A stretch of DNA of 64,000 nt from Squalus acanthias. Lineage: Eukaryota. The DNA is taken from assembly GCA_030390025.1 (NCBI GenBank), contig CM059432.1, positions 10,726,001-10,790,000 on the forward strand, in the 5' to 3' direction. Below the pieces are notes generated by a model. It worked only from the letters and a program-made list of their open reading frames with translations. It ran no database searches and was not told the origin of the DNA. This document shows, one piece after another, positions 998 to 43,002 of the stretch. Position numbers and translations under genes: made by a program. Position 1 is the stretch's first letter. Each line of letters opens with the position of its first letter.

Positions 998-2721
998 CAT
1001 ACTTTGGTTCTGTCTTCACAAAGGAGGACACAAATAAACTCCCAGAGATGTCGGGGAACATAGGGTCTAATGAGAGGGAGGAATTGAATTAAATCAGTAT
1101 TTGTAGGGAAATGGTGTTAGGGAAATTGATGGGATTGAAGGCCAATAAATCCCCAGGGCCTGATAATCTACATCCTAGGGTACTTAAGGAAGTGGCCCTA
1201 GAAATAGTAGATGCATTGCTGGTCATCTTTCAAAATTCTATAGACTCTGGCACAGTTCCCATGGATTGGAGGGTAGCTAATGTAACCCCACTATTTAAAA
1301 AAAGTGGTAGAGAAAAAACGGGGAATTATAGACCGGTAAGCCTGACATCGGTAGTGGGCAAAATGCTAGAGTCCATTATAAAAGATGTAATAGCAGAGCA
1401 CTTGGAAAACAATGACAGGATCGGACAAAGTCAACATGGATTTACAAAAGGTAAATCATGCCTGACTAATCTACTGGAATTTTTTGAGGATGTAACTGGT
1501 AGAATAGATAAGGGAGAACCAGTGGATGTGGTGTATTTGGACTTTCAGAAGGCTTTCGATAAGGTCCCGCATAAGAGATTAGCGTGCAAAGTTAAAGCAC
1601 ATGGGATTAGGAGTAAGGTACTGATTTGGATAGAGAACTGGTTGGCAGACAGGAAGCAAAGAGTTGGAATAAACGGGTCTTTCTCCGAGTGGCAGGCAGT
1701 GACTAGTGGGGTACCGCAGGGATCGGTGCTAGGACCCCAGCTATTCTTAATATATATTAATGATCTAGACGAGGGAACTAGATGTAATATCTCCAAGTTT
1801 GCAGACGACACAAAGCTGGGTGGGCGTGTGTGCTGTGAGGAGGATGCAGAGAAACTCCAGTATGATTTGGACAGGTTGGGTGATTGGGCAGATGCATGGC
1901 AGATGCAGTATAATGTGGATAAATGCGAGGTTATCCACTTTGGTGGCAAAAACAGGAAGACAGATTATTATCTGAACAGCAATAGATTGGGAAAAGGGGA
2001 AGTGCAACGAGATCTGGGAGTCCTTGTGCACCAGTCGCTGAAGGTAAGCATGCAGGTGCAGCAGGCGGTTAAGAAGGCAAATGGTATGTTGGCCTTCATA
2101 GCGAGAGGATTCGAGTACAGGAGCAAGGATGTCTTGCTGCAGCTGTACAAGGCCTTGGTGAGACCACACCTTGAGTATTGTGTGCAGTTTTGGTCACCTT
2201 ATCTGAGGAAGGATGTTCTTGCCATGGAGGGAGTGCAGCGAAGATTTACCAGACTGATACCTGGGATGGCAGGAATGACGTATGAAGAGAGATTGGGTCG
2301 ATTAGGCTTATATTCGCTAGAGTTTCGAAGAATGAGAGGGGATCTCATTGAAACTTATAAAATGCTAACAGGACTAGACAGACTAGATGCAGGAAGGATG
2401 TTCCTGATGGCGGGGGAGTCCAGAACCAGAGGTCACAGTCTAAGGATAAGGGGTAAGCCATTTAGGACTGAGATGAGGAGGAATTTCTTCACCCAGAGAG
2501 TGGTGAACCTGTGGAATTCTCTACCACAGAAGGCAGTTGAGGCCAATTCATTAAATATATTCAAGAAGGAGATAGATATATTTCTTAAGGCTAAAGGGAT
2601 CAAGGGTATGGGGAGAAAGCAGGGACAGGGTACTGAGTTTGGATGATCAGCCATGATCTCATTAAATTGCGGAGCAGGCTCGAGGGGCTGAATGGCCTAC
2701 TCCTGCTCCTATCTTTTATGT
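998..2721 (+). mobile_element. 5'-truncated CR1 LINE with open RT ORF (1111-2646) and 3' UTR, inserted in the minisatellite
   Basis: KSPGPD, YRPVSLTS, YLDFQKAFDKV, GVPQGSVLGP and KFADDTK motifs; CR1-type 3' end (GGCCTACTCCTGCTCCTAT). Confidence 0.95.
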
Positions 2722-3461
2722 TCACTGCCCGGGGGGTACACTCACTGCCCAGGGGGTACACTCACCGCCCGGGGGGGGAAATCACTGCCCAGGGGTACAC
2801 TCACTGCCATGGGGTACACTCACTGCCCAGGGGGTACACTCACCATCCAGGGGGTACACTCACCGCCCGAGGGTATACTCACCGCTCGAGGGTACACTCA
2901 CCACCCAGGGGGTACACTCACTGCCCGGGGGGTACACTCACTGCCCGGGGGGTACACTCACTGCCCGGGGGGTACACTCACTGCCCGGAGGGTACACTCA
3001 CTGCCCGGGGGGGTACACTCACCGCCCAGGGGGTACACTCACTGCCCAGGGGGTACACTCACTGCCCGGAGGGTACACTCACTGCCCGGGGGGTACACTC
3101 ACTGCCCGGGGGGTACACTCACTGCCCGGAGGGTACACTCACCGCCCGGGGGGTACACTCACTGCCCGGAGGGTACACTCACTGCCCGGGGGGACACTCA
3201 CCGCCCGGGGAGGGTACACTGACTGCCCAGGGGGGTACACTCACTGCCCAGGGGGTACACTCACCGCCCGGAGGGTACACTCACCGCCCAGGGGGTACAC
3301 TCACTGCCCAGGGGGTACACTCACTGCCCGGGGGGTACACTCACTGCCCAGGGGGTACACTCACTGCCCAGGGGGTACACTCACTGCCCAGGGGGTACAC
3401 TCACTGCCCGGGGGGTACACTCACTGCCCAGGGGGTACACTCACTGCCCAGGGGGTACACT
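2722..3461. repeat. Same ~20-bp minisatellite, right block
   Basis: Same unit as 368-997, resuming immediately after the CR1 tail. Confidence 0.95.
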
Positions 3462-37264: not shown

Positions 37265-37521
37265 GTGGAAGGCAGCAAAATAGTTTTCTCCATGGGATTC
37301 CCTTCTAACTTATTTGTTGGAGAAGGAAGAGGAGGTAGACCTGCAGGCAACTAAGGATACCCACCTCACAAGGCAACATTACAGAAGATCTAGACCTTCA
37401 TACAGATACCCCAGCAGATCGTTCCTCAATATATCCATGGAGTTACATGTCAGGAGGCCTCGGTGTTCTGTGACATGTGTGCAGATGTTCCTGGACCTGC
37501 CACTTGATCCAGGATGCTCTG

Positions 37522-40500
37522 TGTCGTAAGAATGAGCCTTACGCGTGGTGAACTTAAAGTAAGCTTTAATCAACTAAAAAGGTGCTACATACAAAAGAGG
37601 TCTTACTCTGTGCCTCTCCAGGATCCAACTGATCAGCCCAGTATTTATCCTGGACTAATCACAGGAAGTGATGTAATAAAGTTCAAGTCACAGGAAGCTG
37701 TATTGTGTTACCACATTCTCCCCCCCCCAAAAGATTAGGAGGCCGGGATGAAGTTCGAGTCACAGGAAGCTGTATTGTGTTACCACATTCTCCCTCCATT
37801 TCGTAGCCGCTGGACGAGGGAGAGCCACACCCGTTTGGGTTCTCGTAGCGGTAGAGGGCCCCTAGCCCGTTTACCCGCCGCGGGCCGTGGACCAGAGTCC
37901 GAGTGATCCAGCCCGCTCTGTGAGGGGTCAGGACGATCCTGACTGTGTACTGGTGCCCGAACGGGTGTCGGGCAGGGCTGTGGCAGATCCGTTTCCGAGC
38001 GTATGGTACGGGGTGGATCGTGGCTGCGCGTGCGAGCCCCGACGGGCTCATAGTCAGTCTGCCCCAGGTCGGCACGCTGGAGTGAGGTACCAGCCGGCGT
38101 CAGATCCAGATCGTGATGAGAGGCACCTGGCGAGCCCAGAGATGTGCCTGGTACAATATCATCCCCTGGTGTCCCTCTATGTTTCGGCGGGCAGGGAGCC
38201 AGATCCCGCAATGACACGGTAGATTCCCGACCGTCAGGATACCGAATATAGGCGTAGGTAGGGTTGACGTCAGTGAGCCCAACCTCATCTACCAGGGGGT
38301 CATTCTTAGATGCCCGAACATATCTTCGGAGTAGCACTGGTCCCGGTGCAGTCAGCCACGATGGGAGAGATATCCCATAGGATGAGCGACGCTGAAATCG
38401 GAAGAACCATTCATGAGGCGTCGTATTTGTGGCGGTCGAAAGGAGGGACCGTGTGGAGTGTAATGCGTCTGGAAGTACTGCTTCCCATTGCTGGTTGGGT
38501 AGGCCCCGAGATCTCAAAGCCAGACGTACCGCATTCCAGATGATAGCGTTAAAACGCTCGACTTGCCCATTCCTGACCGGATGATAAGGCGTAGTTCTGC
38601 TGGCAGCAATACCCCGTTCCGAGAGATAGGCCTTGAGTTCTCCTGACATAAAAGAAGGGCCCCGATCCGAATGAACATAGGATGCCATGCCACAGAAAGC
38701 AAATACCTGCTCAAGGCAGCTGATAACCGTGGTCGTCAGCATATTGGGGCAGGGAAAGGCAAACGGAAAACGGGAATACTCATCGACCATGGTCAATAGA
38801 TAAGTGTTGCGAGTTGAAGAGGGCAACGGCCCCTTAAAATCGATGCTAAGCCGTTGCATTGGCTGGGTCGCATGTATGAGTATACCACCCGAGGGGCGGA
38901 AAAACTGAGGTTTCAATTCCGCACAGACTCTGCAGTCCGAGCACATCTTCTTTACATCCCCGGTAGAGAATGGGAGATTTCGGGACCGCACGAAGTGTAG
39001 CATGCGAGTAACGCCCGGATGACACAACCCATCATGGATGTCTATGAGCGTAGAGGGTGCCATGGCGGAGCAGAATGCTCGTGTGAGGGTATCCGGAGCC
39101 ACATTCTCCTTGCCAGGTCGATAGTGGATGGTGTAACCAAAAGAGGCCAATTCCAGCCGCCAAAGCTGGATTTTATTATTTTTAATTTTGGTCCGTTTTC
39201 GATTATCGAGCATGAAGGCGACCGATCGCTGGTCCGTGATTAAGGTAAAGTGCTGGCGAGCTAGGAGATGAGTCCACTTCCGTACTGCCTCTATGATGGC
39301 TGTAGCTTCTTTCTCGACTGGAGGATAATGTAGCTCAGCCCCTTGAAAAGTCCTGGATAAAAATGCCACCGGACGACCTTCCTGATTCAGAGTGGCCGAG
39401 ATCGCCACCTCCGAGGCATCACACTCAACAACAAAAGGAAGACTCTCATCGATGGAGTGAAGAGCCGCTTTCTCCAACTGTTTTTTCAGGAGGTTAAAGG
39501 CTGCAACAGCCGCTGTGTCTAGTGGGAATGTGCTGGCCTTCAGTAGAGGTTGGATTCGGTCCGAGAAGTTAGGAATCCATTTAGCATAGTATGCAAACAG
39601 GCCGAGGGCCCGACGCAAGGAGGCCGGATTCTTAGGTGGCGGGAGTTCTTGGAGTGGGCGAAGCCTTTCAGGGTCAGGTTTAATGATGCCATTGCCCACA
39701 CAATAGCCAAGGATGTTGATGGTTGGTTGTGACTCAATGGATTTAGCCGCATTTAATGTCAAATTACGGTGCTGGAGTGCATCCCAAAATCGTTGGAGAT
39801 TGGCGTCATGTTCCCGCTGATTGCGACCTGCAACAGTAATATTGTCCAGATAAGGAAACGTATCCTTTAAGTCTTCCTGTTTGACCAGGTCATCCATTGC
39901 TCGCTGGAAGACAGCCACTCCATTAGTGACCCCAAAGGGGAGGCGACGAAATTGATACAGTCGTCCATTGGCTTCAAAGGCCGTATACTACTTGTCTGAG
40001 ACCTTCAAGGGTACCTGATGATAGGCACTTTTCAGATCATATGTTGAGAACACCGTGTACTCAGCCAGTTTATTAACCATATCATCGATGCGCGGCAATG
40101 GGTATGCGTCCAAGTCCGTATATTGATTGATGGTCTGTGAATAGTCAATGCACAGCCGTTTTTTGTGAGGTTGTAGAGGGTTCTTAACAATAACGACCTG
40201 GGCGCGCCATGGCGATGAACAAGGCTCGATGATATCCTCTGCTAAAAGCCGAGAAATCTCAGCCGCAATAAAAGACTGGTCTTCCTGACTGAAACGTCGT
40301 GACTTTGTTATAATCGGTTTGCATCGAGGAGGGATACTGGTAAACAGTGAGGGTTCATCCAGTGAAGCTGCTGACAATGCACAGAACGGTAATCGAGGTC
40401 GTATATTAGAAATAGTGAGTTCAGGTTTGGATCCGCCGAACTCAATGGTGAGCTTCTTATGCTGCTTTTGAAAATCTAGCCCTAAGATAAGATCACTACA

Positions 40501-42002
40501 TAAGTCCTTGAGCACCGAAAGCCGGGTGGAGGGATACCTGTGACCATTAAGTGTTATTTCAACCATACAAAAGCCAGAAATTCTGGTATTAAGTGATGAC
40601 TGAGCCATCGCAATTGCCTGGTCCGATGGGAAAACATGTAGCTTTAACTCTGCAACAATCTGTTCCCTAATGAAACTATCAGTGCTACCTGAGTCAATTA
40701 AGGCATCTAAAGTATGTCCATTAATTGATGCTTTTGTAGCTGCATGGAATAGGTTCTGAGGACAAGCAGCTGTAATTGGTGTCGTTGCACAAAGAGTGGC
40801 TGAAACTCTAGGTGTGTTTCTTCGAGAGAAAACCCGAGAGGAAGCACGATAGATTTTAGCCGGAACATCTTGATAGGCCCTTACCGGGGCAGTTCGGTAG
40901 GACTTAGCTTGATAAGCCCTCGTAGAGGCTCTTGATAGGCAAACCTTTGCAAAATGACCCTTTTTGTTGCAATGACTGCAAAACGCATTGCGAGCAGGGC
41001 AGAATTTCCGAGGGTGAAACTCATCACCACAAAAGAAGCATTTCTTAGATTGCCAAGAGGCTGCCACAGTGGGGTCATCATCCTCTTCATCAGTGAAGTC
41101 ATCAGATTGATCGTCAGGGATAAAGTCCTCCCTAATAGAGTTCACCTGTGGCCTCTTAAATTGCCTGACTGTAGTTAAGGTAGCAGACCAAGGTCTGGGC
41201 ACTGTATAAAGGTCTGCATTTCTTTTTGCCAGATCTAGAGAGCAAGCCATGTCATAAGCTCTCTGAAGCTCAAGTGTCTTACTTTCCAGTAGACGCTGGC
41301 GTATAAATGGGGAGGCAAGCCCGCAGATGAAAGCATCACGGATCATTTCTTCACGGTACAGCTCAGCTGAGGCCGCCTGAAAGTTACAGTCCATACTAAG
41401 TCTGCGAAGCTCTTGGAGGAATTTATCAATGGATTCCTCCGGCCCTTGTTGGGCTGTAGCTAGTAGATGTCTGGCATAGACCTCATTCGGTGTCTTAGTA
41501 TATAGTCTTTTAAGCGTCCGAATTGCCTCCTCGTAACTGCCCCATTCCTCGACATACTGAAATACATTCGGGGTGACACAGTTGATGAGTATCCGCAATT
41601 TTGAGTCATCATCAGCCTTGCAATATTCGAGAAAATTGTCAAACGTACGATACCAGTGTTTCCACACCTTACCGGCTGCTGGGGTGTTTGGGTCCAAGTC
41701 AAGACGCGATGGTTTAAGGATGTTTTCCATGATGGGTGATTCCCTGGATCCTTAGTTCCGAGTTCGTCCAAAAAGTTTGAGTGCGAAGTTTTCCAAAGTT
41801 GATTAAATTGTCGTAAGAATGAGCCTTACGCGTGGTGAACTTAAAGTAAGCTTTAATCAACTAAAAAGGTGCTACATACAAAAGAGGTCTTACTCTATGC
41901 CTCTCCAGGATCCAACTGATCAGCCCAGTATTTATCCTGGACTAATCACAGGAAGTGATGTAATAAAGTTCAAGTCACAGGAAGCTGTATTGTGTTACCA
42001 CA
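37522..42002 (-). mobile_element. Full-length Ty3/Gypsy LTR retrotransposon (Mag-like), 4481 bp
   Basis: LTRs 41809-42002 (5') and 37522-37715 (3'), TG...CA, 1 mismatch in 194 bp; CTCTG TSD at 37517-37521 and 42003-42007; PPT at 37716-37728. Confidence 0.97.
37780..41730 (-). pseudogene. Single gag-pol frame (~1316 codons: Gag, two CCHC knuckles, PR, RT, RNase H, IN) broken by one in-frame TAG at 39988-39990
   Basis: ORFs 39988-41730 and 37780-39918 are in the same frame; LIDSGS protease, LCIDY/DLKSAY/PFG/YLDN RT, ECDAS/EKEA/ITDQ RNase H, HHCC and D-D-E integrase; no chromodomain. Confidence 0.93.
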
Positions 42003-43002
42003 CTCTGCATTGTAGAGAAGCTCCACAAATGATGGCACTGGAATCTGCTGTTATGCCTATCATCTGCCACACATCTTCTGAGAGTCTTTCATATGGCTCT
42101 GAGACTTTTCAAGCATTTGCCTTTTCATAGAAGAACCCCTGAGATCATCATCTAAATGCTCAATTGGCAGAGTCTGACATTTCCTCAGCCTCCACTCAGG
42201 AACATTAGACTCCAAATCCAATACTTCATCTTCTGGCTTCCTTGTGAGTTGTGAATCACACCCTTTATCAATTACTCATCTAGATTATCTGTATCACCCC
42301 GAGTTAACCAATCTGGGCTGGTGAGTACAAGTGATTGGGTTCATAATGGAGTGGGTCAATTTCCGTTGGGAGTGCCGGATGTTGAAGGTTCTGGCATTGG
42401 TTCCTTCTCTCTCTCTGCCGCATCTTTCTTGCTTCCAGATATTGTGCAGATAAGAAGAGTGAGAAATATAGTGACTTTCCTGCTATCGATTGTTAGCCTG
42501 AAATAAGGGTCTCCTCAAAGTATAAGCCTCAAGACAGAGAAACCTTGTCTGATCTTTGGCCATCAGCACTTAGTGCAAATCATCTGTGGGAGCAGGCCCC
42601 TCCCACCCATCTCTCCATCCCCCTACAGCATTATCTGAGTGATTCCCAGGATGTCCTCTGTCTCCTCCCCCCACCGTAACCCATCCTTCTCAGGAGTTGT
42701 GTCCAATCTTTTCCTGCATGGCAAAAGAATGCTTCTTATTGTAAGTCACAGACTGCTTAATTTGACAATTATTTGAGAATGATCATCTCTTATGGAATTC
42801 TCACAGAAATAGGAAGGCTTCAATGGGCATGCATTGCAGGATGGCGTATCCACTTCATTGAAATCTTACCTGTGTGGTTGTCTCTACAGATCGTTTAATG
42901 CACAGTATGATATCCCTAGATTTGAGAATGCAATTTTAGGGTCAATATAGGTCAACTGCCTGAAACATCAAAAATATACATTACTTGCAGCCATCAAACT
43001 TA

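Follow-up and report, generated by a model that had tools for sequence, protein, structure and literature searches.

A helix between LTR and primer site, conserved by compensatory change, in an animal clade of Gypsy retrotransposons that likely prime themselves

The window analyzed here is a stretch of 64,000 nt from the 3.7-Gb genome of Squalus acanthias (G000). On its minus strand lies a young copy of a 4.5-kb LTR retrotransposon. The two LTRs, each of 194 bp and bounded by TG...CA, are at 41809–42002 (5′ LTR) and 37522–37715 (3′ LTR), differ at one position, and are flanked by the target-site duplication CAGAG (42003–42007 on the 5′ side and 37517–37521 on the 3′ side). A single gag-PR-RT-RNase H-IN frame of 1316 codons runs from the ATG at 41730 down to 37780, with one interruption in this copy, a stop codon in RT (39988–39990), and a polypurine tract occupies 37716–37728. 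The TG...CA ends, the target duplication, the polypurine tract, and the domain order PR-RT-RH-IN are those of Ty3/Gypsy elements. The Gag has two C-x2-C-x4-H-x4-C knuckles, and Pfam gives no SH3_Tf2-1 match and, at E ≤ 0.05, no chromodomain in the element, in agreement with the two CCHC knuckles and the missing chromodomain of the initial annotation; no env was found in the element. A duplicate of the purine tract and of the LTR's first ~40 nt stands at 37748–37797, 72 nt upstream of the 3′ LTR; the gag-pol frame terminates inside it. This duplicate may be what is left of a plus-strand priming site that has shifted. The LTR-start motif is single in the six other 3′-LTR loci of the host genome that were checked, and in run X13 the LTR comes directly after the upstream purine tract. 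Elsewhere in the window, two arrays of 19- to 20-nt tandem repeats with long open frames are found at 300–1010 and 2690–3450, and the remainder contains many dispersed repeats resembling the 3′ ends of LINEs.

Past the terminal CA of the 5′ LTR, the element reads one A (41808) and then TTTAATCAACT (41807–41797), which is the exact complement, over 11 nt and with a loop of 44 nt, of AGTTGATTAAA inside the LTR (41862–41852). The TGG start expected of a tRNA-type site is absent after the 5′ LTR of this element. Both the A followed by a non-TGG site and the exact 11-nt match, from which self-priming had initially been proposed, are borne out by the window sequence, and the match is kept in all 30 of the 30 best copies in the host genome. 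In what follows, negative numbers designate the primer-like arm upstream of the helix end, with −11 at 41862 and −12 to −16 at 41863–41867. The latter positions form a T run that could lengthen the helix, imperfectly, onto 41796–41792. The primer-like segment contains ATTAAA, and its first A (−11) stands in an initiator-like context; directly 3′ of the segment is a small hairpin (41839–41851), the first base of which is the predicted cleavage junction. A U5 hairpin, CGTAAG/CTTACG (41812–41830), is present in the predicted fold, and the TATA-like GATAAATA lies at 41936–41929, as had been annotated, starting ~75 nt upstream of the primer-like segment. The fold of this single copy is modestly beyond chance (z = −2.62, with three of 200 shuffles as good, for a 73-nt piece; z from −1.3 to −2.0 for three longer pieces), and the strong evidence for the putative helix is comparative rather than drawn from that fold. 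Rfam gives no match in 41600–42100. A spliced primer was rejected for the window element: the GT..AG candidate inside the LTR is of 33 nt, and splicing would add no match length.

The host genome holds the family of the window element and a second, sister family, recovered with the Gag of a relative as query. For the window family, 2,255 places match the LTR end and primer site exactly, the top 40 DNA matches of the element are 99%–100% identical, and all 150 of the 150 RT matches scored are 100% identical; judged by these identities, the family is very young. Against the 2,255 exact copies, five primer-site variants were found (two positions tested), all of them uncompensated. They are likely changes that followed insertion, with no sign of copy-correction. 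A second subfamily has 793 LTR matches and a 12-nt stem. In the sister family, 45 copies carry a G at one position of the primer site, and the compensating LTR segment is perfect in 16 of the 30 G-variant copies read. Among 13 mismatched G-variant copies that were fetched, 11 have a 3′ LTR, and nine of these 11 retain the compensating C there, as would be expected if the 5′ LTR had undergone CpG decay after insertion. The sister family contains, on these counts, a compensated sublineage.

Subfamilies A (loci L001–L030) and B (L121–L150) of this genome are both young and carry distinct LTR markers. A search for recombinants between the two subfamilies, aimed at mapping the strong-stop end, yielded 1 and 8 single-site variants, and the second marker of the other subfamily is present in none of the five single-site-variant loci read. 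The lack of clear U3/U5 recombinants at the tested markers may mean that A and B were not packaged together. At C1:564707–575029 and C4:938041–942785, element copies stand ~4.25–4.3 kb apart, a spacing that suggests tandem arrays with shared LTRs. Polyadenylated retrocopies were sought, with no match.

Outside this genome, a protein search gives a tight group of relatives at 45%–69% identity, beyond which identity falls to about 30%. The named proteins of the group are from shrimp, whipworm, electric ray, cockroach, hagfish, and liver fluke. Closest to the window element are a shrimp protein (P0004, 69% in the best segment) and a metagenome contig (L031, 73% at the start of RT), the electric-ray protein being more distant (58%). 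Horizontal transfer among aquatic animals is possible. An RT pattern gave DNA of relatives from 571 metagenome loci, of which the best 80 were taken, and from six MAG contigs; the family set consists of the metagenome and MAG contigs and the host genome, the hosts of the named proteins (shrimp, ray, hagfish, etc.) lying outside it. Contigs L111–L115, in bacterial MAGs, encode this animal retrotransposon, and these occurrences are probably eukaryotic contamination of the bins. The viral contigs scanned contain no relatives of the window element.

The start of Gag is found in 137 of the 180 loci collected, and 131 of these have enough upstream DNA (six were dropped). Clustering gives 29 families, 27 from contigs and two from the host genome. 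For each locus, the stem was defined, with no motif assumed, as the perfect inverted repeat of greatest length within the 275 nt surrounding the start of Gag. A perfect stem of 11–19 nt is present, in the best copy, in 24 of the 29 families, and the maximum in 348 dinucleotide shuffles is 10 nt. There is one common register (set by hand for L099 and L067), with the right arm beginning ~1 nt after a CA and, where both LTRs are present, with that CA as the LTR end. The loop is of 24–69 nt in all 24 helix families, among which there are 21 distinct 11-nt primer sites.

At positions −5 to −11, which are in part selected by the stem cut-off of at least 11 nt, 168 of 168 pairs are Watson–Crick, against 94 when partners are swapped between families. 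At −12 and −13, 46 of 48 positions pair (20 with swapped partners) and, at −14 to −16, 50 of 72 (33 with swapped partners); the families being mutually related, these counts are not independent events. At −17 to −24, the 46 pairs in 192 are background (50 with swapped partners), and the clade-wide boundary of pairing is at −16/−17. RNAalifold, given 22 sequences (that of the window plus representatives of 21 families, without L067 and L112), predicts only this helix, of 13 bp, with changes on both sides in 11 of the 13 pairs. In L071 and L055, a further co-change of primer site and LTR segment occurs. The initial annotation had proposed a search for such compensatory changes, and co-variation is found between families as well as within the sister family of the host genome. 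The predicted helix is clade-wide and is conserved by compensatory change.

Sites without an initial TGG are also known from half-tRNA primers, in Bianca, Osser, and FunCo1 according to the excerpted texts of PMC6317226 and PMC5445492, and a host tRNA half or other small RNA might bind the site, with the match to the LTR incidental. The sample of host tRNAs is tiny, seven distinct tRNAs for Lys and Cys only, and within it the longest complement to the primer site is 4 nt. Each of the 21 different sites matches its own LTR and co-varies with it, and we consider binding of such a small RNA extremely improbable. A sequence starting with TGG, which would suit a tRNA-derived primer, occurs in one of the five families without a perfect stem. 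Two of these five (L061 and L100) have decayed helices, and in two others (L094 and L098) no LTR is seen. In the fifth (L035), the region 330–420 has TGGCGGCGTCG right after an LTR-like CA (TGGCGG..., which shares bases with a possible ATG), with a partial LTR complement after it, and the upstream part is cut by an apparent DNA-transposon end. The tree places L035 inside the clade, near the window family; it may be a true tRNA-primed member or a rearranged copy.

Several features accompany the helix in the 24 families. An A is found at −11 in 17 families and a G at −10 in 21; 14 families have Y-N-A-G-Y with its A at −11, a motif that we take to resemble an initiator element. After the helix, the bases are mostly C at +2 (22 families), C at +3 (20 families), and T at +4 (21 families), and a small hairpin closed by bases +2 to +4 is found in 14 families (null mean 1.8, maximum 8). 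In 14 families, that of the window included, a hexamer A(A/T)TAAA overlaps with the end of the helix; in eight of the other 10, it is absent from −120 to the primer site. The U5 hairpin of the initial annotation is real in the predicted fold of the window family, but it is not conserved among the helix families. The Tf1-like duplexes are not conserved either, with p ≤ 0.1 for a U5-end duplex in only five of 24 families (Fisher 0.085) and a leader duplex in three of 24 (Fisher 0.51). As for the early reservation that a TATA box might set the RNA start further upstream, it stands for the window family, but a TATA-like match is present upstream in only four of the 24 families, at scattered distances and with no common one.

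Poly(A)-masking hairpins exist in retroviruses, and the helix could be regulatory or structural only (masking of 5′ poly(A), packaging, or circularization), with priming left to some other primer. The ATTAAA seen at the outset in the primer-like segment is truly there, and the overlap of the hexamer with the helix in 14 families, that of the window among them, suits such a role. The masking role fits only those 14, however: the helix is kept without the hexamer in 10 of 24 families, and L037 alters the TAAA end itself, with compensation. Moreover, the paired site is 1 nt past the LTR end in most families, which is the position of a primer and where the helix would block a primer acting in trans, and the clade has no alternative tRNA site, save perhaps in L035. 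A helix without a part in priming is thereby very unlikely.

The site adjoining the LTR end tracks its own LTR through many substitutions, and a primer derived in cis is therefore the simplest reading. We infer, with a probability of roughly 0.75, that the window element and its clade prime reverse transcription with a segment of their own LTR RNA, in a Tf1-like manner. Transcription would begin where the helix does or a few bases earlier, at about −11 to −16. The 5′ end of the RNA would then fold back onto the primer site, the RT/RNase H of the element would cut after the ...UAAA end, and minus-strand synthesis would proceed from the new 3′-OH through U5 and R. In families with A(A/U)UAAA inside the helix, that of the window among them, the helix may dampen 5′-LTR polyadenylation as well, as a side effect and not as a rule of the clade. 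The self-priming first proposed for the window copy is strongly favored by compensatory conservation across and within families, priming itself and the RNA start being predicted from the sequences.

In the excerpted text of PMC7175516, the primer of Tf1 is of 11 nt: the RNA's initial 11 bases anneal to the primer site, and RNase H makes its cut between bases 11 and 12. Priming in Tf1 requires a three-duplex structure (bioRxiv 10.1101/2022.12.06.519325, as excerpted), and transcripts of Tf2 that start downstream of the LTR and are without the self-primer are described as not reverse-transcribable in the portion consulted of PMC5341516. In the present clade, pairing to −16 exceeds an 11-nt primer and counts against a simple Tf1-like model. 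The −16 edge could correspond to the furthest RNA start, to an enzyme footprint, or to pairing with the 3′ LTR copy. In the two host families, the TATA-like boxes start 75 and 92 nt upstream of −11, so that the RNA could start further upstream. Self-priming might then take another route, in which RNA from a TATA-driven far-upstream start, or a copy from the RNA 3′ end or from a partner RNA, pairs over ~16 nt and is cut after ...UAAA. The continuation of pairing past the initiator-like A at −11, the boxes of both host families, and the absence of the Tf1 pretzel are in line with this route, but the initiator-like context at −11 is conserved, the TATA position is not common to other families, and the loop of 24–69 nt in all 24 families suits a local fold-back. 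We find this route unlikely and keep local fold-back of the RNA 5′ end as the preferred reading.

All trees recover the clade as monophyletic, on a long stem (support 100/100) and outside the Mag-like group. The label "Mag-like" is defined here by one database name ("K02A2.6-like") and by Gag motifs, with no named Mag references, and matches bearing a chromodomain stood in for chromoviruses, with no named Tf1 or sushi reference in the trees. The 59-row tree is a quick tree; the 96-row RT-RNase H tree leaves out 15 short matches and 10 near-duplicates, and the IN tree one of 31 rows. In the RT-RNase H trees, the clade is beside the Mag-like set, with SH-aLRT values of 95 and 91 in the quick trees and support of 74/52 in the careful tree. 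This sister link is weak in the careful RT-RNase H tree and absent from the IN tree, where the AU test gives p = 0.345 for Mag as sister. A chromovirus sister position is not rejected by the AU tests either (p = 0.356 for RT-RNase H and 0.197 for IN). In no tree is the clade nested among the chromodomain-bearing sequences, and the Pfam lists of relatives P0004–P0020 and P0022 contain no chromodomain. The Pol of the clade is ~30% identical to that of the Mag-like set, and its Gag is similar to Mag-like Gag with E from 3e-14 to 1e-4, against >0.01 for chromodomain-bearing proteins. The initial assignment as Mag-like has thus the Gag similarity and the best RT-RNase H trees in its favor and, against it, a long-branch clade of its own and the unrejected chromovirus sister. 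The RT/IN phylogeny proposed at the time puts the elements outside the chromodomain-bearing group, the AU tests still allowing a position as its sister. On these trees, the clade is neither a member of Tf1/sushi nor a proven member of Mag. Since the AU tests reject neither sister position, an origin of the self-priming signature independent of Tf1/sushi is likely but unproven. No published clade name was matched to the clade; among molluscs, Cigr-1 and MolGy1–16 are named clades in the excerpted text of PMC6238403.

The excerpted texts of PMC6317226 and PMC4600332 report self-priming for Tf1/sushi and give it as a prediction for Tcn1 and for TAR, a copia lineage. As in Tf1, Tf2, Tj1, and the Tf1/sushi chromoviruses, as far as the excerpted sources describe them, the site after the LTR CA complements an LTR segment of ~11 nt and there is no tRNA site; some Tf1/sushi members also have a single gag-pol frame. 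Unlike Tf1/sushi, the clade has neither a chromodomain nor a conserved three-duplex pretzel and is not nested among chromodomain-bearing sequences, and its pairing extends over 13–16 bp or more, ends in a conserved ...TAAA, and is followed downstream by an R-C-C-T motif. The self-priming of Tf1 has been shown experimentally, whereas that of the clade is predicted from sequence. In Tcn1 (a plant chromovirus clade) and TAR (Ty1/copia), as here, self-priming is predicted from complementarity between LTR and primer site, and with TAR the trait lies outside chromoviruses (PMC6317226, as excerpted). Those two are plant lineages, whereas the present clade is of Gypsy type and in animals. Skipper of Dictyostelium and the fungal GalEa share the lack of a tRNA primer site; they are without LTR complementarity in the excerpts of PMC5006619 and PMC5445492, which describe instead a polypyrimidine stretch and a hairpin downstream of the LTR, whereas the LTR complement of the clade is perfect. 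Bivalve TRIMs also have neither a tRNA site nor LTR complementarity according to the excerpted text of PMC6934838. The two CCHC knuckles and the detectable Gag similarity are shared with the Mag lineage (A/B/C clades, K02A2.6-like), from which the clade differs by its long stem outside the Mag-like group and the divergence of its Pol. Mag elements normally have tRNA sites.

Taken as a whole, the picture would be that of an animal-wide clade (worms, arthropods, and fish) with tRNA-free priming that arose independently of Tf1/sushi and by simpler means: a single helix of ~13–16 bp ending in ...UAAA, an R-C-C-U hairpin marking the cut, an initiator for a primer of 11–16 nt, and a poly(A) signal hidden in about half of the families. 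With all these parts joined, we give it a little less than an even chance. In the open full-text literature, a scope that stops short of subscription papers and Repbase, we found no account of a clade like this one being self-primed. The clade-wide feature is real, and it most likely represents a variant of self-primed reverse transcription not described before.

The mechanism of self-priming itself is already known. So far, self-primed reverse transcription has been demonstrated by experiment in fission-yeast Tf1, the other cases, in chromoviruses and in a single copia lineage of plants, being predictions. The significance of the present case rests on a large and recently active animal clade, with thousands of near-identical copies in the host genome, without a chromodomain and without the pretzel. 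The compensated variants and the sharp boundary at −16 lead to exact predictions for the mapping of RNA ends. If self-primed, the clade would evade silencing by tRNA fragments directed at primer sites. If the reading is true, loss of tRNA primers can recur among LTR elements, or self-priming goes back further than assumed.
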